A DNA stretch of 64,000 nucleotides. It comes from a virus. The notes beneath the pieces were generated by a model. The model was not told where the DNA came from, did no database searches, and was given only the letters and a program-made list of their open reading frames with translations. Shown here one piece after another: positions 5,784 to 52,400 of this stretch. Each line of letters begins with the position of its first letter. The first letter of the stretch is position 1. The position numbers were made by a program, and so were the translations under genes. Location: the IMG/VR virus record IMGVR_UViG_3300043571_000425; one strand, 5' to 3'.

Positions 5784-6563
5784 ATGTCGCTAGAACCAGA
5801 AATCCTTGCAGCTATTCAAGAAGCCGTCAAAGGCACGATAACAGAAGTTGTTAAGCCCCTATCAGAACAGCTAGAAAAAGTCCAGTACGACAACGGGAAG
5901 TTGACTGAAGCATTAACAGGGTTATCAACCTCAATCCCTAGCCAACTTGACGAACGGTTTGGGGCGATTAATCCGACCTTGGAATTTTTAAACGAACTCA
6001 GGAAAGAAGCCGAAGCGGAACAGCAGGAAAAACCCAAGAAACAATCTGAAATTGATGCAGCTTTAGTTAAAGCTAAACAGGAATACGAGGCTAAATTTAA
6101 CCAGCTTCAACGAGAACTTGAGGAACGGGACAAAGAAGCTCAAGCCCTCAGAGAAGCGGATCGCAAATCTCGCATGAGAAATGATGTATTAGGGCAGATG
6201 AGAGCGCTTGGTACGGTACGTCCAAATACGGAAGAGGATTTACTGACTCTCCTAGAAAAACGCGGTTTGATTGTCGAAGATGGCGATAAATTTTTCGTTA
6301 AATCTCAGGATAAATTTGGCGGACAAATTAACGCCGAATTTAAAGATATTCTACCCAAAATGCTGGAGTCAGATTTTGCTCACTTTGCCGTCCCGCGCGG
6401 TGGCACTGGCACGGATGGACAGCCGGGAAATCGTGCGCCTCAAACTTCTCAATATAACTTTGGTGGTATGACTGCTCAGGAAATTTACGACACTTACAGC
6501 AAAGATCCTGAAGCGATGAAAGCTTATAACCAACTACTCGAACAGCAGTTCGGGAAAGCTTAA
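5784..6563 (+). CDS. putative scaffolding protein
   Basis: 259-aa, highly charged, helical or coiled-coil-like protein (EAEAEQQEKPKKQSEIDAALVKAKQEYEAKFNQLQRELEERDKEAQALREADRK), immediately upstream of the capsid-like gene. Confidence 0.5.
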   Translation: MSLEPEILAAIQEAVKGTITEVVKPLSEQLEKVQYDNGKLTEALTGLSTSIPSQLDERFGAINPTLEFLNELRKEAEAEQQEKPKKQSEIDAALVKAKQEYEAKFNQLQRELEERDKEAQALREADRKSRMRNDVLGQMRALGTVRPNTEEDLLTLLEKRGLIVEDGDKFFVKSQDKFGGQINAEFKDILPKMLESDFAHFAVPRGGTGTDGQPGNRAPQTSQYNFGGMTAQEIYDTYSKDPEAMKAYNQLLEQQFGKA

Positions 6564-6590
6564 TTCAAATAATTCTTAAAAGGAATTTTT

Positions 6591-7910
6591 ATGCCACCAA
6601 CCTTTACCGCTAATGATGCACTTTTAGAAACTCGCATTGCCCAAAGTGCATTAACCCAATTAAACCTGATGGCGATGTACCCCCGTGTCGCTGTCACTAA
6701 CTACGAACCCGGGGCTTTTGAAGTTGGCAATGATGTTAAAATCCGTCGTCCCAAGCGTCGCCGTGCCACTGAATTAAATCCCCGTTCTGCGGCTGGTACT
6801 TTTAATGAAGCTGCGTTTTTCTCAGGTTCTATCACCTTAGAAAAACTTTGGTTTGATGGCTGGCAGACTTACGGAATTGATCCACGTCAAACCATTGAAA
6901 AATATTTAGCGGAAACTGGATCTCAAATGGCGGATGCGATCGCTACGCCAAATGATGAGTACATGAACTCATTATTCACTACTTGGACGGCAACGACTGG
7001 CACGGTGGCTTTAGGCGCTAACGCTCCGGTAGGTGTTGCGGCTTGTGTAGATTCCACTACTGGTGCATTGACCAATTTCAATAGTGCTGGGTTAGTTGGC
7101 GCGGGTGTAATTCTTGATAGAGAGAATGTTCCTAAAACTGACAGATTTGGGTTAATTTCCCCTGTTGCGGCTGGTGCATTCTTGCAGGATTCCGTAGCTA
7201 TTACCGGATTTGCGGCTGCAACCATTGGCGGTGGTCAAGCAATCCAAAATGGTTTTCAATCATTCCTACCCCGGTTTGGTTTCTTGGTTGGACAAAGTAA
7301 CGTCATTTCTAGCCAAGCTGGTGTTGCAGATTTAGACACTAACGCAGGTGTACAGGCAACTTTAGCGATCGCATCAGTTGCCGCTAATACTGATTTCACC
7401 TACGCTGACAACGCCGCAACTACCTCCGTCGGTGCGGTTAATTTAACCCTAACTTGTACCACAGCCTTATCTACTAGCGTGGCAGTTGGGCAAATTATCA
7501 GAATTGGTACAAGTGGCGTAGCTAAAGCATTTGGCGTGATTTTGAGGCTGGATAAAACCACAGCCACCGCGCCCGTCGTTACTGTTGTACCTTTCTCCCC
7601 CAATGGCGCAAAACTATTGGCAGCGCAAATCATTCCCGGTACTGACTTGTTTAGTGTGCCTAGTATCCCATCAATCAACACTGTCAACCACCGTGAAGGC
7701 TTATTGATGGCTACCCGTCGGATTGCTGAACCATCCCCCGGTAGTGGTGCGGTAGCTGCTTCAATTACCGACCCCGACACAAACCTGACCATTCAGGTAT
7801 TCCGGGGCAACTACGACACCGGAACAGTAAGCGAGAAAAACGCTTACTATATGCTGACTGGTTCTAAAATCAGCGACTTCCGTAAATGTGCGTTAATCCT
7901 ATCTCTGTAA
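6591..7910 (+). CDS. putative major capsid protein
   Basis: 439-aa Ala/Thr/Gly/Val-rich ORF, 27 nt after the scaffold-like gene. The call rests on position and size; homology has not been tested. Confidence 0.55.
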   Translation: MPPTFTANDALLETRIAQSALTQLNLMAMYPRVAVTNYEPGAFEVGNDVKIRRPKRRRATELNPRSAAGTFNEAAFFSGSITLEKLWFDGWQTYGIDPRQTIEKYLAETGSQMADAIATPNDEYMNSLFTTWTATTGTVALGANAPVGVAACVDSTTGALTNFNSAGLVGAGVILDRENVPKTDRFGLISPVAAGAFLQDSVAITGFAAATIGGGQAIQNGFQSFLPRFGFLVGQSNVISSQAGVADLDTNAGVQATLAIASVAANTDFTYADNAATTSVGAVNLTLTCTTALSTSVAVGQIIRIGTSGVAKAFGVILRLDKTTATAPVVTVVPFSPNGAKLLAAQIIPGTDLFSVPSIPSINTVNHREGLLMATRRIAEPSPGSGAVAASITDPDTNLTIQVFRGNYDTGTVSEKNAYYMLTGSKISDFRKCALILSL

Positions 7911-7913
7911 TTT

Positions 7914-8240
7914 ATGCCTATACTTTTTGCGCCAGACGGTCAAGGGGTACAGGTTCATGAAATGCAGGTAAATAGCTTTTTGCAGCAGGGGTACAGAACG
8001 ACTGACCCCACTGAAGTTAAACCCGCACCTAGACCAGTCACCCCGCCCAAAGAACCGGACACAAGCTTGATTTTGATTAATTCCGCATCCCTTAAAGATT
8101 TAACGGAAAAATTGGGATTGACAACAGCCCAATCTAAGGAGGTCAGGGACGGCAGACCCTATGCCAGTGTTGAGGATTTAATCGCCAAAATCCCCGCTGT
8201 TCAATGGACCACATTCACTAATTTAAGTTACGAGGTGTAG
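7914..8240 (+). CDS. small protein with helix-hairpin-helix-like C-terminus
   Basis: 108 aa. SLKDLTEKLGLTTAQSKEVRDGRPYASVEDLIAKIPAV resembles a ComEA-type HhH motif. Confidence 0.4.
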   Translation: MPILFAPDGQGVQVHEMQVNSFLQQGYRTTDPTEVKPAPRPVTPPKEPDTSLILINSASLKDLTEKLGLTTAQSKEVRDGRPYASVEDLIAKIPAVQWTTFTNLSYEV

Positions 8241-16945: not shown

Positions 16946-17017
16946 AGCGAGTAGGTAGGATTTGAACCTCCGATCATGGGTTGGACACCCACAGCTTTAC
17001 CACTCAGCTATACTCGC
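16946..17017 (-). tRNA. tRNA-like gene, anticodon UCC (Gly) by position, non-canonical
   Basis: The reverse complement reads GCGAGTA-TA-GCTG-AGTGGTA-AAGC-T-GTGGG-TGTCCAA-CCCAT-GATC-GGAGG-TTCAAAT-CCT(A)CC-TACTCGC-T. It has a perfect 7-bp acceptor stem, GG in the D loop and a TTCAAAT T loop. However position 33 is G, not U, the T stem carries a bulged A, and no CCA is encoded. Confidence 0.6.
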
Positions 17018-17020
17018 AAT

Positions 17021-17293
17021 CTAATTATATACTATTTTCTCACCTTTATACATTGAGAAACCACGTTTTTTAATCTCATCAAACGGGATTATGGGAACTG
17101 TTAATTTTTCTCTATAAGTAGGATCTAAAAAATAGATATATCTCATTTGGCAGCCGCTTAATAATTCTCCACCATGATCTTGTTGTAATTTCTTCAATGG
17201 TGTATTTGGGTTTCCATAGGTGTTTGTTACCCAATGGCTAATTGCAGATGTTTTTGTTTGTACGGTAATTCTATGAACCGTATCCCCCCCCCC
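17021..17293 (-). other. 88-codon open extension of the Mom-like gene in the -1 frame, reached through a G10 tract
   Basis: Removing one G from the C10 run (17284-17293, plus strand) gives ...LSRGGDTVHRITVQTKTSAISHWVTNTYGNPNTPLKKLQQDHGGELLSGCQMRYIYFLDPTYREKLTVPIIPFDEIKKRGFSMYKGEKIVYN* ending at TAG 17023-17021. There is no stop in 88 codons of AT-rich DNA. Confidence 0.6.
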
Positions 17294-17756
17294 GCGAGAG
17301 GTGTCTTAACTTATCAGGCAATCGCCAAATCATATCAGACTTACTATTTATCCCAGTCAAAATAAATCCAGAAGCCCTATAAATAGTACCGTCTCCACAC
17401 TGACAAGCATCAGAAAAGCTAAGAACCCATTTTAGATGCGGCGCGTGTTTTCTTAATAGTTTAAATGCAATTGATAACGCCCTGCTTTCACTATTTCTTG
17501 GCAGATTGTCACTAAATGCCATGCGGTTTAATTCAACAAAATCATTCCATTTTGTATCTTCAACTAACCCGATGACCTTGCTTTTGTCCAGTGGTGAACC
17601 GAACTGCATCGCACCTTCAAGACTACCATTGTAGAAAACACCAATATGTATCCGTGAGTTATTAACAACCTTCCCTGAGTAATGAAGTTTTTTAATAATA
17701 GCGTTAGCTTCCTGGCTGGTGATAGGTTTTAGAATAATGTTTTTAGCTTTACCCAT
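17271..17756 (-). CDS. Mom-like GNAT-fold protein (putative DNA-modification acyltransferase), apparently truncated
   Basis: The motifs LHYSGKVV, VELNRMAFSDNLPRNSESRALS and VLSFSDACQCGDGTIYRASGFILTG match my recollection of the Mom/GNAT-like phage family (HY..., EL.R...N.eS, s.aD...G.iY.AsnF..G). The ORF stops 4 codons after a G10 tract. Confidence 0.45.
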   Translation of the reverse strand: MGKAKNIILKPITSQEANAIIKKLHYSGKVVNNSRIHIGVFYNGSLEGAMQFGSPLDKSKVIGLVEDTKWNDFVELNRMAFSDNLPRNSESRALSIAFKLLRKHAPHLKWVLSFSDACQCGDGTIYRASGFILTGINSKSDMIWRLPDKLRHLSRGGGYGS

Positions 17757-18396
17757 GACTCCCTACAAACATTTCACATATTCTCGCTAATGAATTGCCG
17801 TTTGAATTTTGATTCGGACTCTCATCAAATTCTCCCATCCCCTTCGCCACGCTAATAGCATCTTTCACGGTGGCAACCTGTTCCTCTGTTAACGTAAAAT
17901 TCATACTTGATAACGTAGCGCGATCGCCAGACGGAATATCGCCAAGCGCGTCCCCCCATTCTGAATCATCGGGCTTTTCCTCATCCAAAAAACTCAACTC
18001 CAGTTCACTAAACCCAGTCAAGTCCAAATCAAACCCTTCATCCTGCAAAAACTCAAAATCAATCTTTAACATTTCCGGGTCAAATCCGGTATTCATTGTC
18101 AACTTATTATGAGTCAACCGATAGGCGACTTTTTGGGCTTCAGTCAGTCCCGTTACCTGAATCACTGGAATAGTAGCATCGCCTCGCTTCTTAGCCGCTA
18201 AAAGCCGTCCGTGACCCTCTAGTAATTCCCCTTTCTCGTCAACTGCCACCGGATCTAAAAATGTAAATTCCTCAATGGAGTTTGCTATCTGGTCCACATG
18301 GGAATCAGGATGTAATTTGGCGTTGTGTTTATACGCCATTAATCTGTCAATATCCCATTCCTCAATCTGACTACGCTTAATCGTCTGTTTGTTCAT
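17749..18396 (-). CDS. ParB-like nuclease domain protein
   Basis: The N-terminal IDRLMAYKHNAKLHPDSHVDQIANSIEEFTFLDPVAVDEKGELLEGHGRLLAAKKRG matches the ParB N-terminal (ParBc) pattern. No methyltransferase domain is attached. Confidence 0.7.
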   Translation of the reverse strand: MNKQTIKRSQIEEWDIDRLMAYKHNAKLHPDSHVDQIANSIEEFTFLDPVAVDEKGELLEGHGRLLAAKKRGDATIPVIQVTGLTEAQKVAYRLTHNKLTMNTGFDPEMLKIDFEFLQDEGFDLDLTGFSELELSFLDEEKPDDSEWGDALGDIPSGDRATLSSMNFTLTEEQVATVKDAISVAKGMGEFDESPNQNSNGNSLARICEMFVGSHG

Positions 18397-22157: not shown

Positions 22158-23075
22158 ATGAAAAATCAAATTATTCACGGTGATTGTTTTGAGGTTTTAA
22201 AGAGTATTTCTGATAAATCAATTGATGCTGTAATCACAGATCCGCCTTATAAGTATTTAAAGCATAAACTAGAAACTAACTGGGATGAGAAACTATTTTT
22301 CATTGAGGTTTTACGCATCCTCAAAAAAGATAGTTTCTTAGTATTTTTCGGCAGGGGTGAATCTTGGTTTAGGTGGAATTATCTTTGTCAGGAATTAGGC
22401 TTTAATTTTAAAGAAGAGATTATATGGGACAAGGTTAGAACTTCTAATCCTATGTGTACGATGCCACGTTCTCATGAAAATATTGCTATTTATACAAATG
22501 GTAAAGGTACATTAAACGAAGCTAGGATAGATAAGCTGGAATATGATTCAATCGCAAACCCAAAAGCTATGGTTAATGATTTCAAGAGAATGCTGGCAAC
22601 TATTAAAAATATTAATTCATGGGATGATTTTATATTATTTAAAAGCGGTACTCTAGGTAGTTCTGATGTTATTAGGCGCAGTGAGGTTACGATACAAGGC
22701 GGAATGAAAAAATGTGATAGAGGTTCAGGAACTTTTAAATCTCACGACAAAGGGCGGAGAATACCCTCTATTTTCAGATGTTTGAACGATTACTATAATT
22801 ACGTACACCCCACACAAAAGCCATTATTACTTATACAGAAATTAATAGAATTGACCACTGTTTCAGGTGCTATGATCTTAGATCCCTTTTGTGGTAGTGG
22901 TACAACTGCCGTAGCCTGTAAAGAACTTGGTAGAAATTATATTTGCATTGAGAAAGAATTAGAATATTATCAAATAGCTTGTCAACGCATAAACCAACCT
23001 ATTGAACCTGAAAAAGAGGTTGTTCCGGTGGTTGAGGAGTTGCCGAAAGTTGAGCAATTATCACTATTTGGTTAA
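22158..23075 (+). CDS. DNA methyltransferase (N6-A/N4-C, beta class)
   Basis: Motif IV VITDPPY lies near the N-terminus. The C-terminal HPTQKPLLLIQKLIELTT...ILDPFCGSGTTAVACKELGRNYICIE carries motif I (FxGSGTT). This is the typical permuted N6_N4_Mtase order. Confidence 0.9.
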   Translation: MKNQIIHGDCFEVLKSISDKSIDAVITDPPYKYLKHKLETNWDEKLFFIEVLRILKKDSFLVFFGRGESWFRWNYLCQELGFNFKEEIIWDKVRTSNPMCTMPRSHENIAIYTNGKGTLNEARIDKLEYDSIANPKAMVNDFKRMLATIKNINSWDDFILFKSGTLGSSDVIRRSEVTIQGGMKKCDRGSGTFKSHDKGRRIPSIFRCLNDYYNYVHPTQKPLLLIQKLIELTTVSGAMILDPFCGSGTTAVACKELGRNYICIEKELEYYQIACQRINQPIEPEKEVVPVVEELPKVEQLSLFG

Positions 23076-37032: not shown

Positions 37033-37257
37033 AGTAGAGTAACCCGTCCTTTCCGGGTGAAAAACTAACCATTGAAACCACCGGAATACTGCAATATTCC
37101 TGCGTGGTATGGTTACGATAATTTTATCATGTTTTCAATAGTCTTATTAATTCTTCAATAACTTAGGATACAATATTATCCAGTCGCGTGATGGTGTTGG
37201 TAGCACCGATTCACCACTGGCTGTAGGTCTTGTACACCCACATTGATATTATTCCCA

Positions 37258-39126
37258 ATGAAAACTATTAAAATCAAGGTCAAACTTCTTGCTGAACAGG
37301 CGCAATCATGCGATCGCTACCTAGAAGAATTGACATGGCTATGGAATCAGGTATTGGCTAATCAATTGCATAACCATTGCATCACCTGGTACAACTGGGC
37401 TGGTAAGTTGAGCGCAGATTTAGCTAAGGCGACGGAAAAGTTAGAGAAGCTAAAACCGGAACAACAGCAGCTTGTTAGGAACTACTACCGCAGCAAAGAC
37501 AAGCCAAAACTCAACAAAAAAGAACAGGAATTAGTTGCCAAATTTGATATATTTTCCCGGTGGTTGCCGTTTGACTTAGAAAATATTATTCCCGTACCTT
37601 TGCGAGTTGGCAACAGTGGCTACGAGGGCTTATCGTGCCAGATTGCTACAGGCGGAAGTTACTGGAAACGGGACGATAATTTTAATATTCCAATCAAAAC
37701 CAAAAAGGGGATTATTCACGTCAAAGGGTCTAAATTAGTTAAGGGTGATTACCCCTGGAAACGAATACAAATAATGCCACATCAATATAAAACTTTCCCC
37801 AGTGGTAAGTTTGAGGGGAGGGAATTAATAGATTTAATGAAGTTTGATAATTTGAACGGGTTAAACGGGTTAAGAGCGATGCAAAATCTACCTGATTTAT
37901 CCGTTTCCTCGCACTACGTCGGAGGCTTGTTAGAGTTTTTCAAACAGTCATGGTTAGCATTTTTAGACCCCAAAAGGATAAACAGCAGGAAGCCAAAATT
38001 CAAAAAAGATGCTGATAAGATTAGCACTTTATTTAATAAGCAATGTCCACCAAATAAGATAGACATAAAGAATAATTCAGTTGAAATTACTGGATTTGGC
38101 AATTTAATCGTTACTGATAGAAGTTGGGGGGAAAGACTGAACCTAGATAGCAGTCTTCCTCGGACGTATATGCTAACCAAAAAAGCATCTGGCTACTATA
38201 TCAATATTGTCCTTGCTCACCCATTGCAAGAAGAAAAAGCGGTTTTAACAAAGAAATTACCCAAGGTTAAAAAGGAGCTTGGAGAAGACAGCCAAGAGTA
38301 CGAAGATATTAAGTCTAAAATCAAGTTTATTGAACAGCAAATCAAGGATTCGTTAATCGTAGTGGGAAAGAATTTAAGTGTAGGGATTGACCCTGGAGTA
38401 CAGGCTATTGTGGCGACAGATCACGGGGCGTTATTCCTCCCAAATCTAAGCAGGGAAAGAGTGTCAATCCATATAGAGGAACTACAATCAAGGCTTGATA
38501 ACCTTGAATTAATTAATGATAAAAAGTGGAAAGATTCAGGAAGCAAAGGTGCTAGACCTAAGACAAAAAACGAGATTAAGATACAAGATAAAATTACCAG
38601 ATTACATGAACGTGGGGCTAATTCTTCTAATGCCTTTAATCATAAAATGTCAACTAGATTAAGCAGGACTTACGAGCATATAGCATGGGAGGATACCCAG
38701 TTAACCAATCTCCTAAAACAAACAGAAGCTAAAGCATTGCCTGAAGGGGTGGGATATGCTCACAACGGCGCGTCTGCTAAACGGGGTTTAAATTGGATTA
38801 TGAGACAAAGATGCTTGGGTGATTTAAAAGCTAAAACTAAGCAAAAAGTTGAGAACAGAGGCGGTAGTTTTCATGAACCACCTGCTAACTACAGTTCTCA
38901 ACTATGCCATTGTTGTCATCAGAAAGGTGAGCGATTATCACAGTATGAGTTTGTCTGCAAAAACTCTGAATGTGAGTTATTTGAACAGGTGCAACAAGCT
39001 GACACCAATGCGGCTAGGAATCACAAACATAATAGTAGTTTTGAACTAGGAGAAGTCAAATATCACAACACTAGATTGGTTTACCAAAAACCCAAGAGAT
39101 TTAAAAAGAAACGCTTGACAAAGTAG
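37258..39126 (+). CDS. TnpB-like compact Cas12 (type V) nuclease candidate with intact RuvC triad and zinc ribbon
   Basis: N-terminal TnpB-style KTIKIKVKLLAEQAQSCDRYLEELTWLWNQV. RuvC-I is GIDPGV (D codon 38389-38391), RuvC-II is IAWEDT (E codon 38689-38691), and RuvC-III is QQADTNAARN (D codon 39001-39003). A CHCCH...CKNSEC zinc ribbon lies between RuvC-II and RuvC-III. A CRISPR array lies 350 nt downstream on the same strand. Confidence 0.75.
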   Translation: MKTIKIKVKLLAEQAQSCDRYLEELTWLWNQVLANQLHNHCITWYNWAGKLSADLAKATEKLEKLKPEQQQLVRNYYRSKDKPKLNKKEQELVAKFDIFSRWLPFDLENIIPVPLRVGNSGYEGLSCQIATGGSYWKRDDNFNIPIKTKKGIIHVKGSKLVKGDYPWKRIQIMPHQYKTFPSGKFEGRELIDLMKFDNLNGLNGLRAMQNLPDLSVSSHYVGGLLEFFKQSWLAFLDPKRINSRKPKFKKDADKISTLFNKQCPPNKIDIKNNSVEITGFGNLIVTDRSWGERLNLDSSLPRTYMLTKKASGYYINIVLAHPLQEEKAVLTKKLPKVKKELGEDSQEYEDIKSKIKFIEQQIKDSLIVVGKNLSVGIDPGVQAIVATDHGALFLPNLSRERVSIHIEELQSRLDNLELINDKKWKDSGSKGARPKTKNEIKIQDKITRLHERGANSSNAFNHKMSTRLSRTYEHIAWEDTQLTNLLKQTEAKALPEGVGYAHNGASAKRGLNWIMRQRCLGDLKAKTKQKVENRGGSFHEPPANYSSQLCHCCHQKGERLSQYEFVCKNSECELFEQVQQADTNAARNHKHNSSFELGEVKYHNTRLVYQKPKRFKKKRLTK

Positions 39127-39475: not shown

Positions 39476-40433
39476 CTTGCAGGATGACTAATCCCTTCTG
39501 AGGGATTGAAACAAGTACAATTGATGGAAATAAAATATTAAGCATAGACTTGCAGGATGACTAATCCCTTCTGAGGGATTGAAACAATTTTGAGCTTGAC
39601 ATAATCATCGTTATGTCACTTGCAGGATGACTAATCCCTTCTGAGGGATTGAAACGTCATGCTTATCAGATGAACTTCACCCAAATACGCTTGCAGGATG
39701 ACTAATCCCTTCTGAGGGATTGAAACAACTTGCTCCTGCACTGCCTTGCAGGATGACTAATCCCCTTGCAGGATGACTAATCCCTTCTGAGGGATTGAAA
39801 CAGGCGTGAGTTTGGCGTGACGTGGCGTAAATCTCTTGCAGGATGACTAATCCCTTCTGAGGGATTGAAACCTTAGATGTTAAGACTGTCAGAAAATATC
39901 AAGGTAGACTTGCAGGATGACTAATCCCTTCTGAGGGATTGAAACGTCGGTTCTTCATTAATTTGCTTGCAGGATGACTAATCCCTTCTGAGGGATTGAA
40001 ACTACCGTTAAAGTGTTCATGAATCTTTTGGGGATGACTTGCAGGATGACTAATCCCTTCTGAGGGATTGAAACAGTGTGTGCAGTCAAATACTTAGATA
40101 TTCCATCTGGATTGCAACTTGCAGGATGACTAATCCCTTCTGAGGGATTGAAACAACTTATGACCCTAACATTGCTTGCAGGATGACTAATCCCTTCTGA
40201 GGGATTGAAACCGACTGATAGCTGATTTTTCCAAATAAACGGAGTCCTTGCAGGATGACTAATCCCTTCTGAGGGATTGAAACTGTACTCTTTTGGCAAT
40301 TGTGGTTAACATCTTCCTACGCTCCTTGCAGGATGACTAATCCCTTCTGAGGGATTGAAACTTCTAATATCTGCGAGCGATATTTATTAAAACCATCTTG
40401 CAGGATGACTAATCCCTTCTGAGGGATTGAAAC
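39476..40433 (+). CRISPR. CRISPR array: 14 identical 37-nt repeats plus one 20-nt truncated repeat, 13 spacers
   Basis: The repeat is CTTGCAGGATGACTAATCCCTTCTGAGGGATTGAAAC. Repeat starts are 39476, 39549, 39619, 39690, 39765, 39835, 39909, 39966, 40038, 40118, 40175, 40247, 40325 and 40397. Spacer lengths are 36, 33, 34, 18, 33, 37, 20, 35, 43, 20, 35, 41 and 35 nt. The truncated repeat lies at 39745-39764. Confidence 0.97.
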
Positions 40434-40477
40434 GAGGCGTGGCAACTATAAGGAAAATCCCTTACCAGTTGCCAGTT

Positions 40478-43400
40478 ATGAATTTAGGCGAACTAATTGT
40501 TGACCTGTCACTCGACTATGCAGAATTTAACCAGTCATTAGAACAGGCGAAAAAAGCCGCATCTAGCGCCGCCGCAAGTATTGAGAAATCATTCCAGAAA
40601 TTATCCCTATCCGTTGACATTGACGACAAGTCACTAACGGATTTAAACCAGCACATCAACATATCCGTACAACACTTAAAGCAAGCTAATACCTTCTTTA
40701 GAAACAACCCGATTACAACTTACGTCAATGATGACAGCCTCACGGACTTAAACGAACACCTCAACGTGAAAGTCCGTCATTTAAAAGAGGTTAACCATTT
40801 TTACGCCCAAAATCCTATCACCGTCCGCACCAATACCGGACAACTCGATGAGCTAGAGGAACGACTAGACAGACTTGGTAACAGAAAGGTGACGATGGAA
40901 GTTGACACCATAGTTCTGAACCAATACCAGGACAAAACCGCAGAAGTTGTGGAACAGGCTATTTCTAATGCCATCCGTCAAATGCAAGTTCCCCAATCTA
41001 GCGGACAATCGGCGCAACAATCACCACAATCTCAACAAAATAGAGTCCAGCGGGTTCAACTGGGATTAGACCCTTTGAGGTCAATTGGCGAGGGCGTTTT
41101 TGAAAATGTCGGGAAACAGTTGAGCAAAGGCGTTGGATCGTCAATGCAGGACTCATTGGGCGTGGATATGAAGTCTTTTACTCAAATAGCCTCTAACTCA
41201 GTTCTACGTTATTTTGGCGTTGGTAAAAAAGCGCAAAAAGACCCCAAAAACAATAAATCAAAAATCAAATCTATTGTTGAGGATGCAATTAAAGATTACT
41301 CTACGGCTGTTGACAAAGGGTCAGGATCTATCAGAGGTGAACTTGACGACGTTGATTTAAGTTCAGTTGATGCGATCGCAAGAAACAGTTTATTGAGATA
41401 TTTTGGAGTAGGCAAAAAAGCACAATCAGACCCCAAAAATAACCAAGCTAAGATTAAATCTATAATTGAAGATGCTGTTAAACAATATTCAGGAACTGAT
41501 GTAAAAAAAGAAAATTCCGGCGTTATATCAAATACATTCTCTGAAATAAATAAAGCATTTTCAGAAACAGTTAATAAAGGTGTTCAGGGAATAGCAGAAC
41601 GAGCTAAACTCGCAACTATCAAGGAAGTTAGAAGGGCATCAACTAACGTTTTAGCCAACTCATCAAGTGGTGTTAGAGACAGCGTAAATGGTCTTTTTGA
41701 CGCTGCCGAAAGTGGTAAAAAAGGGTCTGTCAGTCAATATATCGGGCGTGGTTTAGCATCACAATCCAGGAAGGCTGTGGAAGGAACTTTTAGCAATTTA
41801 TTCCCTACAGTTGCACCGATAGTTAAAGAATTTTTAGCCACTGGGAACAAACCACCTGTAGAAAAACAAGCTCCTAAACAACGCCCAGCAGACGGATTAT
41901 TAGAAGCGGCCAATCAACTCAAGGAAGCCGCGAAGGCAATCAGTGAATCAGCGATTAAAGTACAATCTGTAGCACCTGTTATTCATGAACAAATAGCAGA
42001 TCCTTGGGGTAGTGCTGACTTAACGCCAGTTCAAATTCCACTGAAACCAGCGAAACAGAAAACCAAGAAACAAGAGCCTGAACCCGAATTAGTTTTACTA
42101 GAACTTCCACAACAAACACAACAGCATTTTAAGACATTAAATGCAGAAGTAGGGAAGAATACCGCTAAATCTCTGGAGTTTTTAAAAGCAACTACACAGG
42201 AAAATATTAAGCAACAAACTACACAATCAATCGCTAATATTAAGGCTGCTTTAGCTGCTATTAATCAATATTTCAAAACAGAATACAAGCAGGTAAAAGA
42301 CGCTGTAGATAATGCAAAATCTACAGGGCATATTGACGATATTAACGCTGCTAGAAGTGCAGCTAAAAATTATCAGCGTAGATTATCTGGTGCGGTTAAA
42401 GAGATAGATAGAATTGTTAAATCTGGCGAGGATGCTGGTTTTAGTAAAGAATTTGGATCTGAATTAAGTCAAGTACACGCAACTGGCAAAGGTCAACTTG
42501 TAGCTAGTGACAAGCGTGTTGGACAGCAATTAGGTGGATTAAACTTACTCGAAGCTAATCAGTTTAAGAAAGACGTAAAAACCTACACAGAACTAGCTAA
42601 AAAAGCGGGCATTGAGATTGACGCAGGATTAATCAAAGGATTAGATATTGGTTCAGCGGGTGTAACGGCTGAAACACGCGACCTGCTAAACGGATTGATC
42701 GCCACTGTTAAGAAAACAATGGGTATTCAGTCGCCATCATGGGTAATGATGGGAATTGGTGCGATGATTGCGGCTGGTTTAGGACTAGGTATTAAAAACG
42801 GTGTCGTTGACGTTTCTAGTGCCGTTGGGCTGTTAACGGATGCTATTGGGGATGGATTAAAAGATATTCAGTCTATTCCATCAGAAGGAATTGAGGCATA
42901 TAATCAGGCGTTAGAAAATGCAGTAAGCGACAAATCGGAACTGACCAAGAAAGTATTTGAGGAAGCTAAGGGAGCAAGCAAAGCGACATTACCTGGAATG
43001 GTATTAGGTACAACCATGATGGGTGTTGCTAACGCGGGTTTAGTCCCTAAATCAATTGAAACACCGTTAAGGCATTTAGGAGCATTTTATCAAGGGAAAG
43101 CAGGGGTTCATCAGATGAATCCGCAATTGGCTAGAGAGGCTGAAATTGCAACTATCTTTAATATGATGCAATTGGCTGAAAAAGGCGACGGGTATTTTCC
43201 TGATAGTGGTTTTGTGGGCATGGTTAAACACAAAACTTTGCCTACTTTAGCTCATACATTGGGAGGTTTTAACTACACACAAAACAAAGACAAGGGGTTG
43301 CAAATTAACGATGTTTACGACTGGCATCAAGATACTAATACAGACAAAAATACACCATTCAAACTACCTAAAAATTTAGGTAGTAAAATATATAAATTCC

Positions 43401-46400
43401 TGGAGTCAAAGAAATGGCTACAAGATTTATTAGGAGTTGAAGAGAATTTATTTGGTAATACCAAAGCATTTACTAAATACAATAAAAAAACAGGGCGTGA
43501 ATTATTCTCAGTCCTTAACACTCAATCTGGGAATGATTTTCAATTAGGGCATTCAGTCCATTCTGAATTAATTGGTGGTAATCCCTACATTCAAACGCAC
43601 CGATTGGATGGGAAAGGGCTGGATGATTTAACAGACTTAGCAACAAACCCTTATATTGCATCTAAAGGCAATTTTGGGCAATTCTTGAATCACCCTAAAA
43701 TTCAAGAATACGTTTTAGGCGGTAGTCAACAAAATCAACAACCGTCTGGATTATTAGGACAATTATTACCAGCATTAAAGAAAGATTTAGGCAGCAATCC
43801 CATACTCACAAATCTATTCAGTAGTGCTACAAAAGCAATTGGTAAAGGTGGCAGTTTCAAAGATATTGGTACTAATCTAATAACGTCATTTGGGCAGGGT
43901 ATTTTATCATCAGATGATGGTGTTTTTGGAATACTTGGAACTTTTGCTAAGTCTGCAATTGGTTTAGTTAAAAAGATTTTTGGTATTGCATCACCATCTA
44001 AGATATTTCATTGGATAGGATTGATGCTTGGGCTAGGATTGGAAGAAGGTGCAATGTCTTCTTTGTCTAAGGCAAATCAAAAAATAACTGGTTCAGTAAA
44101 AGCTACGACAAATAACGCAAAAACAATAATTCAGGGGGATCATTCACTTGGATTAATTGGGAACATACCCCTAGGCGTTAAAAAAGAAGTTTCAATAGGC
44201 AATCAAGTACAGGGGGCTGACGGCACTGTGTCTGGTAGTGCTGGGTATGTAAAAAACGTTCCTTACACAATAAATGACTTACGGAATCACGTAGGAGATA
44301 TACTATCTGCTAACAAAAATTACGGGACTTCGGTAGTACCAGGACTGAGTGGTATCTTGGAAAATAATTTATTTCCGACTTTTAGCAAGGCGTTTAAAAC
44401 AATAAAGTCTTCTCCTGTTTATACTCAAAAAAATCAACAAAAAAATCCTCAAGCTGTATATGCTGCAACACCAAATATTCACTCACAGCCTACGATACTA
44501 AACCACGCTCAACATGCATTTAACACATTATCAAGTATTCACTCACAGCCCACTAGGTTAAACGCACCTCAGCAATCACAAGCTACAGTTTTACAGCCTA
44601 CCAATACAATTTTACAGCCCTTACAGTCAAATACTCTAAGACAGGCTAATACAGTTTTACAGCCTACCAATACAATTTTACAGCCCTTACAGTCAAATAC
44701 TCTAAGACAGGCTAATACAGTTTTACAGCCTAATTGGATGTTCCACAATCCAACAAGTCCCCAAACCGTATCTGCTGCTATCCCCCTACAGCAAATTACG
44801 CAGCTAGGGACTGAATTAGGGAATAACGTAATTTCCGCAGTCGGGAACAGCATTAAACAGACAAGGGGGTTAAGCTATCCAACATTAGGGCAATATATGA
44901 GAAATGCCGTAGTTGCTGCGGGTTCTGCTATGTCAGGGTCACTTATGGGGATGTTAGGAGGGCATTTAAAAACCTTCTTCCCCATGATCATGAAAGTTGC
45001 TTTACCAATGGCAGGTGTAGCGGCGTTGAAACTTGGTGACGGCATTACAGGCAACTTACTGAAAAATGGAATATTCAAGCAAGGCGGATTTTTAACCGAA
45101 TTACTCAGTGCTTTTAGTGGCATTAAACTGGGTTCTATGGGTGGTGCAGGTATTAAATCTGCGATTACCGGGATTACACAGTTTTTGGGCGTATTTCCGA
45201 TGCTGTCACCATTGGCAAGAATTGGATCAATGGCTGCTAATGCGGGTGTAGTGGCTCACGATGTTTTTAGTGGTGGCAACGGGGGACGGAAATCAGTTAA
45301 TACAGTTTTAGAAAACAAGACTACTGAAAACCTGAAAGAAGCGGGTTTAAACTCTACAGGAAATTCCACCGCAGATTTAGTAGAGAATTTGGCAGAAACT
45401 ACCGTCGGTGCTTTGTTTAGGATGATTGGGTTCGATGGTGTAAAAGCATCCGCCGTACAAGCATTAATCAAGGGTAAAGTTAAGCAACATTCTGAACAAA
45501 TCGCTAACGCCGTTGGTGGTGTTGGTAACGGTCAAATATCCGCATTGATAGATGGATACGTAAAAGGCGATTCTACCCAATTGGCGGGTACAGCGGAATC
45601 CATGCTCAAAAACATGGGTATCACCGGATTGGACTCTAAGCAAATTAAGCTTGCTGCTAATGCAATTACGGCTACCCTATCAGGTCTTCATGCCAAATTC
45701 GGACAGGAAGGATTTGGACTTGGTGAGTCAATTAATAAGGGATTTAGAAAATCTTTAGCAAATCTAGCTAACGCCAAAGATGATCTAGAATACAACCTCA
45801 AAAAGGCTGTAGGAAAAGCCAGCGCAGGTGACGTAATCGGCAACATCTTCAAACGGATGTCACGCGGTTTCGTTGTTGACAAGGGGATGTTTGATGAAAT
45901 GTGGAATCAGGTGGGAGCATCCTTTAAAAAAGGTGCTTTCAAAGGCATGAGTGGCAACGAACAAGAGGGAATGTTCGGGAATATGATGGGATTCATGGCA
46001 TCCGCTACAGCTATGTTTGCGCCGATTACCGCAATGGCTGCATCTCTAGCTCCTTTATTCCTCCCTCTAATGCCTATAATCGCGGGTATTGGCGGTGCTA
46101 TCAGGATGGTAATGCCCCAATTGAGCAAGCTGTTTGAGGGTATGCAACGGGTAGAAACCTTGCAACGCCGATTCACCTTTTTGGGTGGCTCTAAAGCGGG
46201 CGGTATCGCCGAATTGAACTACGCCAAGGGTGTCGCCAATCAAATGAATGTTCCGTCAGAAGTTGCGGCCAACTCATATTCTCAGTTGGCAATTGCGTCC
46301 AAAGGAACAAAGATGGAGGGGCAAGGCGTAAAAGACTTGTTTGAAGGTATCACCGCTTCCCTAAGTGCTTTAGGCATCAGCGGTCAAGATGCCTCCCTGG

Positions 46401-49400
46401 TATTTATGGCATACACTCAGATCATGGCAAAAGGCAAGCTGTCAATGGAAGAATTGAGACAGCAGTTAGGCGAGAAATTCCCACCGGCAATGGGTGTATT
46501 TGCTAAAGCAATGGGTGTTTCTGTGGCAGAAATGAATGATTTAGTCGCAAGCGGTTCTATTCTGTCACAGGATATTTTACCCAAGGTCGCCAAAGTCTTA
46601 AAGCTGGATTACGGTAAATCAGCTTCAGGTAGTGCCGACAGCCTAGTTTTGGCACTTACTAAACTTGGTAACGTAGGGTTTGAAATCACTTCAATATTTA
46701 CTGATAAACTATCTGGAGCGCTTGCAGGGATTGTTAATTTTGCATCGAACGGACTGGGGTTTCTAAAAGATTCTCTAGGTACTTTGATCCCATTAGGGCA
46801 ATCTTTTGTAATCGGTTTTACCGCAACGATAGCGGTAGGATTGACGGTCATGATGACAAAAATTAAGCCTGTAGTAGTGCTATTGGGAACTCTACAAAGC
46901 CTTGTATTATCAACCTTTTCAGCGATTGCATCCAATTTAATGCCAATGATCATAGGCATAACCTCAGACGTTGCAGACGGTTGGTTAGGGGCTGAAAGTG
47001 ATTTGATGCAAAACATGACGCGCGGGTTCACCAATATGTTTACCGGATTGTTTTCGGCAATTGATTCCGGTGTCCGTGCCATGTCAGGCAAACCACTATT
47101 TGCTGAAGGTTTAATCGGTGGTAAAGGTGTAAATCTAATAGTCGCTGGTATAGATGCTATCAAGGGAGCGTTGGGTGCGGTGTTTTCGATTATTCCCCCT
47201 GGAGTCGTTGAACTTGGGGCGTTGGTGTTCATGCTTGAGCAAGCGATCGCTCTTGGAAGTATGGCACTTGGTCCGGCGTTAGTCGGTGGCGGAAAAGCAT
47301 TATTGGGAATGGTAGTAGGCATCAAAAACGCTTTCATCGGAACAGTTGGGACGGTGAAGATTTGGGGTGAGTTAATGATGACCTCAATGAACGCTGGTGC
47401 AGTAGCTACAGAAAAAGCAGCGGCTAGAGCGATGATTGCTAATCAAGGTTGGAAAATGAGTCTGATAGCACTCAGATCAATGGCTACTCACGTGGCTATT
47501 GCGATGGGTATCTTGATGTTTTCCAAAGGTGATTTCAGCAATCCACTGGGTGACAAGATTGGCGAAACTAGCAAGAAAGTTACAGTAAATCTAAATAACA
47601 TGAAATCGGCTGCTTTATCGCTGGGTGAGGCGTTTGATAAAGCCGCTGGACAGTTGGTGAACTTAAACAATAAATTGACGGATACCCTGCCATCTAAAGG
47701 CGTACAGCTTGATATTCGTAACTTCTGGGATAAGACGAAAAGCACTACTTCAGATGATTTGATTCGGAATAGTAACCGCGCAGAAGTTGAAAGACGACAA
47801 CGCGAAAAAGACGGCAAGCAAACTTTTGGCGATAAAGCCTTAAACGTTGCGGACAAAGCTCTAAAATACAGCGGGATTACAACACCAATGTATTTGTACA
47901 ACTCTTGGTTAAGCGATCGCTTAGTCCCAAAAACGGACGATGCAACGATTGATTTAGTCAAGAAATACGGACTAGAAAAATATATTGCCCCTGACAAAAA
48001 CCTACGGGTTGATATGGCGCAATCCCAAGTAATCAAGGCTTTGCAGGATTCAGAAGCTAACACCAAAGCATTAGCAAGCACCTATTCTAAATTAGGACTA
48101 ACGAAACAGACTCAACAAAATTATTTAATCCCTGAAAAAATGGGTCCAGTCAGCAACACTTTTGATATTGACGCGCAGATTAAAGCCGCTAACGACAAAA
48201 TAGCGCGGCTTAATGAATTAGATAAAAAATATACTTTTTATCAAAGCAGTAGAGCTGATGGAAGAATCTCAAAAGAAGAGGATCTATCAGGTTTTAGTTT
48301 TGGCGGAAAAACAGCAAATCCAGAAAGAATAATCAGGGGTGATTTGGATATTGAAAAAAACATTATCAGGGAACAAATAAAACAACTTGAAAACCAGCGT
48401 GCATCAACAGCCCAAGGTGTGGAACGGTTCAAATCTAACAAAGAAATTCAACTGATTGACGCGCAGATTTTAGCTAGAGTTAAGCGTGGTGTACAACTTG
48501 AAAAAGCCAACCCTTCTGATGCTACAAGAAAGGAGCTTGGTGGAATTGATACCGCAGTCCTGGAACTCAAAACCAGACGGGAGAAAATCATCAATGGCAT
48601 GGGTTCAGATGTCAAAGACGCAAAAGAAACCCTTGATATATTAGAACAGCACAAGAAAGACATCCTGGATGGTGCTGATGAAGCCACTAAATCATTTAAC
48701 ATCCAAATCCGGCGAGCGATCGCCAAAAACATAGATCAGCAAATTGAGCTTGCTAAAAATGCTTTTGACATTGCACAAAAATCCGTACCCGCGCAGTTTG
48801 GAGACGACCTGTACAAAAATGCAGCTAACAAGTTACGAGACACACAAATTGCATTTGATAGGACTTCCAGTGCTGATAAAATTGCATCTGCAACCTTCAG
48901 GGCATCGGTTAATAGTTCTTCTGAAAGATCCGCTAATGTAGCCCCTATTCTGGCGAATAGACAAGTTGCTGATTTAGAAAAACAGCAGAAAGAATTAGAC
49001 AATTTAACATCTCGCAAAAAAGAAACTATTGACGCTTATGCAGCTATTCTCAGATATGGTGCGAACAAAGATGTTAAAGATGAACTAGAAAAACTCAAAG
49101 CCGAAGTTTTAAAAGATGATGAAAGCTTGGCTCAACTACAAGATGATGTTGCTACAGCAAAGCGCGGTATCCGTCAAACTTTAGTGGATCAAACTAAGCA
49201 AGTAGCCGACTATTACCGCACCGCAGTTAGAGAAGCTCAAGCTGTTAGCATCGAGTTCCAAAAAGCCCAAAAGACCCTTGAGAACTCCAGAATGCAAAAC
49301 AAACTGAGAGAGGCTTTAATAGGTGCTGGCGATAACATCTACACTCAGTTTATTGAAGGAATTATTAATATAATTTCGCAAACAACTGAGATTGAAAAAC

Positions 49401-52400
49401 AACAATTAGAAGCCAGGAAACAACGCATTGACTATGAGAATAATATTGAGGATATCCGGTTACAAGCGGCAGAATTACAGCGCAGCTTACCAGGGAAGAT
49501 AATTCCGCTAGATTCTAGCATGGCGGATAATTTTAATCTCAGTCTTGAGGAGATAAACGGCACGGTTAACACGATTAACAACAGTGTTAAAAATGTCGCA
49601 AATACCCTGTCGAATGACGTTGTAGATGCCGCTAAAAAAGCTAATACTGAACTGGATAAACTGAACCAAAGTATCAAAACCATTGACAATAGCAGCAATT
49701 CATGGATAGAAGGTTTTGGCAGTAAGTTTGCTGATTTGACTAAATCACTTGAAAACGGTTTTGATGGTGTTGGAAATGCGATCGCTGATATGACACTAAA
49801 AACCTCTAGCTGGTTAGCGTCAATGGCTACCGGACAAGGTTTGTTGCAGAATTTAGCAGGTGGCGTTAAATCGGTAGTTAGTGGCGTATTTGGACAACAA
49901 GCGGGACAGCAATTAGATCAGGGTGTTCAGCAGCTTGCTAGTAATCCGATTGGGGCTATCAATAACTTCTTGGGCGCAAAAAACAAAATTCTCTCCCCAA
50001 TCCAAGGAACTACAGTAGAAGATTTACTTAGGTACAAGCCGTCGTATCAGCAGGGCTTTTATGGAAGTAGAGACAAAGGTGCGAGACAACACAGCAAGGT
50101 GGATTTCGACTCACGCGCCAAAGCCGGACAAAATGCTGAAATAATTGCCAGCCTACCGGGTACAGCTACAGCTAAAAAATGGACTGGCAATAGCGGCGGC
50201 GTGTTCATTAATAGTATTTTGCCATCAGGTCAAAAAATAACCCTGGAATACGGGCATCTGTCACTTGAGAGCATTAAAAAGACTTTTGGTGGACAGCTTG
50301 GCAAAAGTATTGAGGTTCAGGCGGGGCAAAAACTAGGCAACGTGATTCATGATGCTTTATCATCTGGTCCACATTTAGATTTTGGGGTGAGACTGAATGG
50401 TAAATACATTGAACCTCAGAAATTCTTGCAAGATTTCATGGGTGGTAAATATGGTGGGGTGGTAAGTGGAAAAACCATGCAACAGCGTCAACCAGTCCCC
50501 AAAGTCCCGCCCATTCCCGGTCTAGATCCACGCATAGATACCAAATTCCTGCAAACTGTAGCTAATATAGCTCAAAGCGTAGGAGCGAAACCTGAAGACC
50601 TGCTCAAAACAATGCTGTATGAAACAGGTGGTACACTTTCACCATCTGCCAGAAACAGCCGCACCAGTGCCACAGGCTTAATTCAGTTCATGCCAGCTAC
50701 AGCTAGAGGGCTGGGAACGAATATCAACGCTTTAGCACAAATGAGTCCACAAGATCAATTAGTATTTGTTCAAAAATATTTGAAACAAAATAGTAGGGGG
50801 CAAAAACTGGACTCTTTTAGAAAAGTTTTGTCAACTGTTTTTGCTGGTAATCCTAACGCTTCATTGGGAATAGGTGATGGGGACATTACCCTTGGTAATT
50901 ACCTCAAAAAAGCAGAAAGCCGATATGGAAACACAGCACGACAATTAACACAAATTGCTATGCAAGGCGGAGCAATAGACCCAAATTCAATGCAGCAAGC
51001 GGTAACTCAAGCGGGTAGACTCAAGTTAAATACAGCAGCCCAGCAACTCCAAACCAACCAAATCAACAGCAATTTAACTCCTGAACAAATTAGAGAAAAT
51101 GAACTGAGGCAAAGGTTAGAAGCTTACAGATTTATTAGATCAACTCGAAAATCGGCATTGGGAGACATCAGCAGCACGAAAGATTCCACATTAGGAACGC
51201 AAAGAACCGTATTAGAGGGACTATCCCCTAATATGAGCAATGCTGACAGATTTGGAATTCAGCTTGCCGATTTGCGCCGAAAAATAGAGAAGGATATGGA
51301 GGCACTACAGCAGATTATTGATGATACGGATGGAGCGATCGCACAAAAACCAGATTTACAGGCTGCTTTTAATTTGGCGATGAAGAAATTCCCCAATGAT
51401 CCAAAGTTAGCGGCTGATGCAGTTAAAGCAAATGATCTGACTTTCAAAGCGACAGCGTTCCGTAATGCAGAAGCCAAAAAGGATCTGGCTTTCTTGAAAT
51501 CTAATGCTGACGACATACTCAAAGCGTCAATAGCAGATTTTGACAAAAAAGAATTTTTCAGATTAAGTGAACAGGATATAGCGCAACAAACGAAGGTTAT
51601 TGAGCAACTACAACAACAGCTACAGTCAATACAAAAATTAGAAGAGATTGACCCGCTGAATCCGTTAGTTTTAAAGATTCCGTCACTCCAGAAAAATATT
51701 GACTTACTATCATTAAACCGTGACCAATACCAACAATTGCTAGACCTCCAAAAACGGTATTACGAAGGTGGTGGTAAGGGTGGCAACATGAGCGAAGAGG
51801 CTTATCAGAAGGAATTTAAAGCCATCCTCAATGTTAATTCTGTCAAAAAAGAAGGCATTGATCTTAACTTCAATTATGCCAATACGGTTAAGAAGATTGA
51901 GCAGGCACAAGTTGAATTAGATACGTCAAGCAAAATGTTTGACCTTTTGAATCAGAATAAATTTGATCTCCGTTCCTCAAACATTGAAACGCTAAAAAGT
52001 GGAATGGCGAATGAATTTTATACTAATCGCCTAACAAGAGATTTGGAGACAGAAAAGGAGATGGAACGCGCCCGGCGTGCCAAAGAACAATTAGCAATTG
52101 ATGTCAATGAATATAATCTTAAATTCCCAGAAAATGCTTTTAATGCAGATCAAATCAAGGAAATGACCGCCGCATTGGATGAATTGAATAAGAAAAAATT
52201 AGACGACATCACCAGATCGGCGAAAACTTTTGATATGGCATTAAAGGAGATGTTCCAGGAGAATCTAATCAATGGATTGACATCTGGATTCACTGAGTTA
52301 ATAAACGGCACTAAATCTTTTGGTGACGTGCTTAACGACTTAGCGAATAACATTTTAAATGGGGTGCTAAATATTGCTCTGAACTCATTACTTAAAGGTG

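Follow-up and report, generated by a model that had tools for sequence, protein, structure and literature searches.

A 64-kb stretch of DNA from an uncultured freshwater phage (IMG/VR record IMGVR_UViG_3300043571_000425; 40.6% GC; hereafter the window) carries on its minus strand a gene of the Mom family of DNA modification enzymes, which is interrupted at a run of 10 guanines. We propose that this locus is a slipped-strand contingency switch for DNA hypermodification and that the window holds its OFF copy, a reading that we consider probable. Both ON and OFF alleles were found in nature on an identical 726-nt haplotype. The part of the gene that is lost in the OFF state holds 13 residues invariant in the family, and the counterpart of its helix-turn-helix-like insertion in the Mom protein of phage Mu is essential (PMC13219725). 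The reading is built on natural polymorphism among assembled contigs, from which we infer the rate and reversibility of switching. All coordinates are given on the plus strand.

The reading frame of mom is set by a poly-G tract

With the 10 G of the window, the open reading frame (ORF) starts at ATG 17756, ends at TAG 17271 (17271..17756, minus strand), and encodes 161 aa, which comprise the GNAT core and a four-codon out-of-frame tail; the sequence after the G run reads GGA TAC GGT TCA TAG. The tract itself, the proposed slipped-strand switch, lies at 17284..17293 on the minus strand, G10 on the coding strand being C10 on the plus strand. It is followed by a post-tract part of 88 codons (17021..17283, minus strand), which runs to TAG 17023-17021 and is not translated at 10 G. 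At 9 G, the two parts join into a complete mom-type gene (17021..17756, minus strand), frameshifted in the window, with a predicted product of 244 aa. The predicted products at other tract lengths are 245 aa with 12 G, 175 aa with 8 G, and 176 aa with 11 G. The tract is therefore a frame-setting repeat within the mom ORF, with 9 and 12 G in frame and 7, 8, 10, and 11 G out of frame; read in frame, it gives R-G-G-(D), which falls in the linker that follows strand beta6.

The first-pass annotation, made from the sequence alone, had already described the C10 run, the 161-aa ORF, and the 88-codon continuation to its TAG, and all of these coordinates held when checked on the window sequence. It had estimated the fused product at about 240 aa, close to the lengths computed here for 9 and 12 G. 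It had also placed the stop of the continuation 3 nt from a tRNA-like gene, where ARAGORN and Rfam both located a tRNA-Gly(UCC) at 17017..16946. Its term "-1 frame" is correct for a 1-nt deletion but not in the ribosomal sense, in which the continuation of the 10-G DNA is the +1 frame. In public annotations, gene callers split or truncate mom into fragments of 161, 175, and 55-69 aa.

Chance does not account for the tract, which is the sole homopolymer of at least 8 nt, of any base, within the window, where all other G/C runs are 6 nt or shorter and where the base composition predicts only 0.012 G/C runs of 10 nt or more. Furthermore, the codons that make up the tract (CGG GGG GGG) are minority codons, as GGG accounts for 18% of the glycine codons and CGG for 14% of the arginine codons, and among 83 Gly-Gly pairs in the large ORFs of the window only one is written GGGGGG.

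The full-length product is a Mom protein that is truncated in the OFF state

The 244-aa product is a true Mom, as Pfam, PHROG 1384, and the best structural match agree. Searched against Pfam PF25680 (Mom), it gave an E value of 4.9e-51 and 173.7 bits (cut-off, 27.1), with residues 7-225 aligned to positions 2-200 of the 202-position profile. The 161-aa ORF alone covered only profile positions 2-134, and the 87 post-tract residues alone still matched positions 154-200. The product also matched PHROG 1384, "Mom-like DNA modification protein". Its homologs number more than 8000 and are typically 240-250 aa long, and an alignment of 21 homologs contained 13 invariant columns after the tract, located in the motifs RYIYF.D, LTVP..PF, and MYKG.

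An AlphaFold2 (AF2) model of the 244-aa product reached a mean predicted local distance difference test score (pLDDT) of 86.5 and a predicted template modeling score (pTM) of 0.80, and showed a GNAT core. After the tract position (residues 155-158), the model contains three helices (residues 162-194) and then the long strand beta7 (residues 197-209; RYIYFLD). The three helices form a helix-turn-helix (HTH)-like insertion, as they sit between strands 132-145 before and 197-209 after them. When this model was searched with Foldseek, the best match in the PDB was the crystal structure of Mu Mom, 8bv8 (E value of 2e-17, 224 columns, 30% identity), and generic GNATs were much weaker, with E values of about 1e-5 or worse. 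Thus, the Mom-like assignment of the first-pass annotation was confirmed by profile, PHROG, and structure. In a profile alignment to 8bv8, H25, Y26, R78, S91, D116, and Y126 stand opposite Mu H58, Y59, R111, S124, D149, and Y159, and these six residues are invariant across the 21 homologs; Mu R151, the seventh needed residue, has no equivalent in the 244-aa product.

The position of the tract coincides with the entrance of the HTH-like insertion. The post-tract part encodes this insertion, beta7, and the C-terminal LTVP..PF..MYKG motifs, so that the 161-aa product keeps the mapped active-site residues without the insertion and beta7. Mu Mom takes glycine from Gly-tRNAGly and attaches it to adenine N6 in double-stranded DNA (dsDNA), after which the product rearranges to 6-NcmdA (Silva et al. 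2026, PMC13219725); all three Escherichia coli tRNAGly isoacceptors serve as donors, and activity is lost when the HTH-like insertion between beta6 and beta7 is removed (PMC13219725). By analogy, the truncated product should be inactive, because the HTH-like insertion and beta7 are missing. Homologs that end at the equivalent of residue 161 with an unconserved downstream frame, which the first-pass annotation had named as evidence against an interrupted gene, were not what we found. The lengths of 240-250 aa and the 13 invariant residues downstream rule out that 161 aa is the natural end of the protein.

Tract length varies among closely related phages

When 6.2 kb spanning the locus were compared with 50,697 phage records by megablast, no match was obtained, so the phage has no close cultured relative. 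Relatives were public contigs from the 90%-identity protein cluster around mom, and the tract was measured on the fetched DNA assemblies; pattern scans added one metagenome contig and four viral contigs, two of these being duplicates. The cluster contained products of 244, 175-176, and 160-161 aa, together with separately called C-terminal fragments of 55-69 aa. In the 40 nonduplicate contigs of the clade, the tract had 7 G (n=2), 8 G (n=15), 9 G (n=18), or 10 G (n=5), which puts 18 contigs in frame and 22 out of frame.

The exact haplotype of the window, defined by the 726 nt outside the tract, occurred with 10 G in the window itself, in Logan SRR27430722, and in JGI 3300042343 (L003, L004), and with 9 G in Logan SRR11245131 and SRR11245132 (L033, L034). 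L033 differed from the window by five substitutions in 2218 bp plus the 1-nt gap in the tract. Haplotype H2, which is 8 nt away from that of the window, had 8 G in 11 samples. Lineage B comprised 11 records with 9 G and three with 8 G, lineage C had 7, 8, and 9 G, and lineage D, in which CGG is changed to CAG, had 10 G and was out of frame; within lineages B and C, these two or three tract lengths occurred at a divergence of only 6-7 nt. In 4.1-kb alignments at 98.1-98.4% identity, the tract was the sole indel. At least six independent length changes are needed to account for this pattern, and no other indel was found in mom except in L032. In this older JGI contig, a 1-nt deletion in a T4 run at nt 216 of mom shortens the product to 75 aa. 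The deletion may be genuine or may be a homopolymer sequencing error, of a kind that some assemblies do carry.

The tract was an unbroken G run in all 11 haplotypes, despite synonymous divergence (dS) of up to about 1. Over such divergence its three fourfold-degenerate sites would be expected to change, and by a rough estimate the chance that none did is a few per cent. Poly-G in mom is not a family-wide feature, as it was found in one of 159 distant loci. This locus (L091 838-846), on a contig of an Omnitrophota metagenome-assembled genome, encodes a 50%-identical Mom homolog and carries an in-frame G9 (AAAAGGGGGGGGGAAAA, K-G-G-G-K) in the equivalent variable linker after the GNAT core; it may represent an independent origin of a similar switch.

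The post-tract part evolves as coding sequence

Each out-of-frame allele gave an unbroken 244-aa ORF once the tract was put in frame, with no second lesion in any OFF allele. In the full-length frame, codons 159-244 had ratios of nonsynonymous to synonymous divergence (dN/dS) of 0.02-0.11 at dS values of 0.15-1.1. Comparisons of one OFF allele with another gave similarly low values, namely 0.044 for lineage A with 8 G versus lineage C with 7 G, and 0.028 for the window with 10 G versus lineage D with 10 G. The untranslated part has thus evolved as coding sequence, and therefore the OFF states are recent or short-lived in evolutionary terms. The remark of the first-pass annotation that the continuation reads like real protein is in this way substantiated by purifying selection and by the 13 invariant family residues.

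One comparison within lineage B gave a different picture. Between its 9-G and 8-G sublineages (L014 versus L035), six nonsynonymous and no synonymous changes were found at codons ~160-185. All six fall within the HTH-like insertion, immediately behind the tract, and both sublineages carry derived states. Diversification of an element that contacts DNA, and not decay, may be the cause, and relaxed constraint could be an alternative.

A probable contingency switch and its alternatives

In the mechanism that we propose, a module of three genes, encoding a ParB_N-like protein, Mom, and a tRNA-Gly-like RNA, would be governed by the poly-G tract within mom, which would decide whether the enzyme is made. 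With 9 G, the full 244-aa Mom would be produced. By homology to Mu Mom, it would use Gly-tRNAGly to place glycine on adenine N6 in dsDNA and so yield carbamoylmethyl-adenine, which would shield the phage DNA from restriction enzymes. Slipped-strand mispairing during replication would add or remove G's, and with 7, 8, or 10 G, the ribosome would halt soon after the tract and leave a product without the HTH-like insertion and beta7; the window copy, with its 10 G, would be in this OFF state. Populations would consequently be a mix of modified and unmodified phages, a bet hedge in which ON guards against classical restriction and OFF dodges modification-dependent defences or the cost and toxicity of Mom. 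Of the three alternatives that the first-pass annotation had left open, namely phase variation, programmed frameshifting, and sequencing error, the data favor the first: the tract ranges from 7 to 10 G across contigs, on an identical haplotype included, the OFF alleles are intact, and the region downstream is under purifying selection.

Several observations weigh against a switch, however. Tract states are largely lineage specific, with the same 8 G in all 11 samples of H2, which may point to slow switching or to strong selection of one state. H2 (8 G; L005-L013, L028, L030) also carries V220A, which changes LTVP to LTAP in a column invariant in the 21 homologs and may be early decay in a lineage that has long been OFF. 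The two further contigs with the window's haplotype and 10 G (L003, L004) may come from the window's own sample, in which case the independent support for 10 G would be that of two assemblers. Moreover, the selective trade-off is drawn by analogy, and the 161-aa product may have residual or altered activity, since all mapped active-site residues are kept.

The main rival that remains is a nonadaptive mutational hotspot, in which the poly-G run often breaks mom and the OFF copies, that of the window included, are early pseudogenes heading for loss. The stability of the 8 G in H2 together with its V220A, and the excess of nonsynonymous changes just after the tract between the lineage-B sublineages, would fit such decay, and a separate N6/N4 DNA methylase of the phage might make Mom dispensable. 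Against this reading, the OFF alleles are free of second lesions, and even among OFF alleles of different lineages the post-tract dN/dS is 0.03-0.04. The tract has also been kept unbroken over large synonymous divergence, although one synonymous change would stabilize the gene. Finally, in-frame and out-of-frame states alternate within each lineage, which argues for repeated change and not one-way loss. We therefore regard the hotspot as unlikely, though it is the most serious competitor of the contingency switch.

It is less likely still that the 10-G mRNA yields full-length Mom by recoding, either through +1 ribosomal frameshifting, perhaps aided by the odd tRNA-Gly, or through slippage of RNA polymerase. 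After a shift on the G run, a tRNA-Gly can re-pair perfectly; the anticodon loop of the neighboring tRNA-Gly-like gene is abnormal (G33), and a 6-bp hairpin begins 1 nt past the tract, in a 104-nt region that folds, weakly, at z = -2.2. The out-of-frame layout, however, is not conserved, as 18 of the 40 relatives are in frame, and the others are shifted both ways (8 G versus 7 or 10 G), so that no single programmed shift rescues all of them; among the 159 more distant homolog loci, no frameshift was found. In lineage B, the 3' arm of the hairpin is changed and the structure is not maintained. The tRNA-like gene is equally present beside mom genes without a G tract and hence does not serve to rescue a frameshift. 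Documented cases of efficient transcriptional slippage mainly involve A/T runs. Leaky expression through slippage may occur. The programmed frameshifting suggested in the first-pass annotation is thus not supported, as relatives are mostly in frame or shifted in the opposite direction.

An error of sequencing or assembly in a phage that truly has 9 G and an intact mom is very improbable: homopolymers are error-prone, the T4-run deletion of L032 may be such an error, and a 9-G version of the window's exact haplotype exists, but 10 G was found in JGI and independent Logan assemblies with 100% identity to the window across 2.9 and 10.8 kb, three assembly pipelines agreed on 8 G for H2 in 11 samples, the lengths follow lineages and recur in many samples rather than varying at random, and the tract is the only indel in the alignments.

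A glycine tRNA-like gene follows mom in the window and in distant homolog loci

The tRNA-Gly(UCC)-like gene of the window (16946..17017, minus strand), found by ARAGORN and Rfam 3 nt after the stop of full-length mom, is proposed to encode a glycine carrier. It scored 39.2 bits on the Rfam tRNA model (threshold, 29) and is drawn by ARAGORN as a cloverleaf. The identity elements of glycyl-tRNA synthetase (GlyRS), G1:C72, C2:G71, U73, C35, and C36, are all present. Features needed for decoding fail, as the RNA has G33 instead of U33 and a bulged T-stem; because U33 and a regular T-arm are missing, we filed it as tRNA-like and not as an ordinary tRNA. Every lineage of the clade has the tRNA-Gly gene at this 3-nt spacing from the mom stop, also where the genes farther downstream are different.

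For the wider family, 160 homolog loci (L042-L201) were fetched from genomes and viral contigs. Right after mom, 18 of these 160 distant loci had an ARAGORN prediction, either of tRNA-Gly (tcc or acc) or of a tRNA whose anticodon loop is 6 or 8 nt long; these loci span nine Mom clusters sharing <80% identity. A covariance model, R1, was then built from 12 mom-adjacent RNAs, with acceptor pairs 4-7 left out of its structure. It matched on the same strand after mom in at least 121 of the 160 loci, with few matches elsewhere in those loci, and, relative to the end of the Mom alignment, the matches started at -28 to +153 nt (median, +10). In the 64-kb window, its single match was the gene at 16946..17017; at phage Mu mom, a search with R1 gave no match.

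The 132 same-strand R1 matches were highly uniform at their ends, as 125 began with GCG, 112 ended with CGCU, and 101 were followed by an encoded CCA. Among 93 unique aligned sequences, G1, C2, G71, C72, and U73 were invariant, C35 was present in 90, and C36 in 89. Position 34 was U in 41, A in 39 (42%), G in 5, and C in 5, and position 33 was U in only 21 (23%). Compensatory double-sided changes (31-60) were observed in acceptor pairs 4-7 and the anticodon stem. Many mom-adjacent RNAs had odd loop sizes, degenerate T-loops, or missing D-arms. The Rfam tRNA model recognized two of 20 such loci, no other Rfam family matched, and most copies of the family go undetected by ARAGORN and the Rfam tRNA model.

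The bacterial GlyRS identity set is exactly the set of invariant positions of the family (PMC10464925). Because Mom uses Gly-tRNAGly, the RNA that follows mom is, judged from these sequence features, probably a phage-supplied, nondecoding glycine carrier. A fuller version of this proposal, about which we are evenly divided, is that the RNA is a dedicated carrier that host GlyRS charges, the ribosome ignores, and Mom consumes, and that the ParB-like, Mom, and tRNAGly-like genes form a self-contained, horizontally mobile cassette to which the poly-G switch was added in this clade. A role of the RNA as a supplement for glycine codons or as a suppressor reading GGGG was also considered and is unlikely, given the missing U33, the A34 or odd loops, and the mom genes without G tracts. 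No tRNA genes beside mom were reported in the literature searched, and the main text of two papers on the Mom mechanism (PMC13219725, PMC7261163) is silent on them.

A ParB-like gene precedes mom

On the other side of mom lies a ParB_N-like gene (17749..18396, minus strand; PHROG 620 and others, E value of 5e-45), whose stop overlaps the mom start (ATGGGTAA). A ParB_N-like homolog was found directly upstream of mom on the same strand in 148 of the 160 homolog loci, often overlapping its start, and this partner is absent from phage Mu. The ParB_N-like protein may help load or target Mom on DNA. No report of ParB together with Mom was found in the literature searched.

The arrangement was also seen in a cultured phage, Psychrobacter phage vB_PmaS_Y8A (OQ059336, L202; positions 6521-8000 of the record), which has a ParB/sulfiredoxin gene and a 52.5%-identical Mom homolog annotated as "hypothetical protein"; two weak tRNA-like matches (25.7 and 25.0 bits) lie in an unannotated gap before its terS. 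Many Clostridia/Bacillota loci (L062, L064, L065, L083, L090, L093-L095, L099, L103, L107, L111, L115-L117) carry two tandem mom paralogs of ~48-50% identity in which the tRNA-like element comes after the second copy; in L093 and L099, the tRNA-like gene is itself present as a tandem pair.

Other genes of the window and related contigs

A second DNA-modification gene of the window, at 22158-23075 on the plus strand, encodes an N6/N4 DNA methylase (E value of 1e-36), which could buffer the loss of Mom in OFF variants. A 4135-aa ORF at 40427-52834 (plus strand) has a tape-measure domain at aa 1905-2082 and a Peptidase_M23 domain at aa 3232-3330 and represents an unusually long tape-measure protein. 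At 37243-39126 (plus strand), a 627-aa ORF contains a Cas12f1-like/TnpB TNB domain (E value of 7e-8). In the related contigs L005/L006 (positions 1-1338), adjacent PAPS-reductase-like and Csf3-like genes were found upstream of a helicase gene.

Discussion

The Mom of the window shares with Mu Mom (8bv8; PMC13219725; Karambelkar et al. 2020, PMC7261163) its Pfam family, the GNAT core, and the HTH-like insertion between beta6 and beta7, along with 30% identity over 224 columns and conserved equivalents of H58, Y59, R111, S124, D149, and Y159. Mu Mom is a methylcarbamoylase, and by this likeness the window Mom presumably performs the same Gly-tRNAGly-dependent modification of adenine in dsDNA. 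Control of the two genes differs, however, as Mu mom is governed by Dam/OxyR, the C activator, and the Com translational activator and has no repeat tract. Mu likewise has neither a ParB-like partner nor a downstream tRNA-like gene, both of which are present at the window locus, and its R151 is unmatched here.

The closest parallel to the proposed switch is agt of phage T2, a DNA glucosyltransferase gene in which an A9 run was experimentally shown to be a contingency locus (Gomez, Barrick and Waters 2025 preprint, PMC12633550). ON variants of T2 agt are protected from McrA/BC and OFF variants escape TgvAB, and reversion is ~1000-fold faster than that of a point mutant (PMC12633550). Both cases place a homopolymer inside a phage gene for DNA hypermodification, with the same bet-hedging logic of reversible frameshifts as proposed here. 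They differ in that the T2 case concerns an A9 run, a glucosyltransferase, and a lytic coliphage and is experimental, whereas ours concerns G7-10, Mom, and an uncultured freshwater phage and is drawn from population polymorphism; moreover, OFF is here the majority state in several lineages. In Fletchervirus (Campylobacter) phages, hypermutable poly-G tracts of 7-11 nt in coding genes generate phenotypic subpopulations (as summarized in PMC12633550). There, the genes concerned encode receptor-binding proteins and the effect is on host recognition, whereas the tract of the window lies in a DNA-modification gene.

The phasevarions of Haemophilus, Neisseria, and Helicobacter rest on DNA methyltransferase genes that are turned on and off by a simple-sequence repeat within the ORF. 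These are bacterial chromosomal genes that act through gene regulation or restriction-modification specificity, and not, as proposed here, in phage counter-defence. A precedent for a carrier RNA comes from the FemXAB cell-wall synthesis of Staphylococcus, in which nonproteinogenic tRNA-Gly species are charged by GlyRS and deliver glycine to a GNAT-like transferase instead of the ribosome. Their role resembles that proposed for the mom-adjacent RNA, but their anticodon loops are normal and they differ mainly in EF-Tu contacts, whereas the mom-associated RNAs mostly lack U33, often have A34 and degenerate arms, and are phage encoded beside the enzyme.

Mom systems and phage contingency loci are already known, and no report of a phase-variable or repeat-switched mom was found in the literature searched; a repeat-switched mom and the conserved cassette, as read from genome sequences, would be what is new here. 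Among phage enzymes that hypermodify adenine, Mom is the best known, and the chemistry by which it uses a tRNA was solved only recently. At the present locus, natural phage populations would toggle Mom by a repeat tract, with about half of the sampled genomes in the OFF state. Such a frequency would imply that hypermodification is costly in the wild or exposes the phage to modification-dependent defences there. The range of phage contingency loci, which covers laboratory coliphages and Campylobacter phages, would also grow to include uncultured freshwater phages.

The conserved association of ParB-like, Mom, and tRNA-like genes may matter more than the switch, and vB_PmaS_Y8A offers a cultured system at hand. 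If true, the carrier RNA would constitute an independent genomic argument for the Gly-tRNA mechanism of Mom, as well as a new class of virus-encoded, nontranslational tRNA-like cosubstrates.

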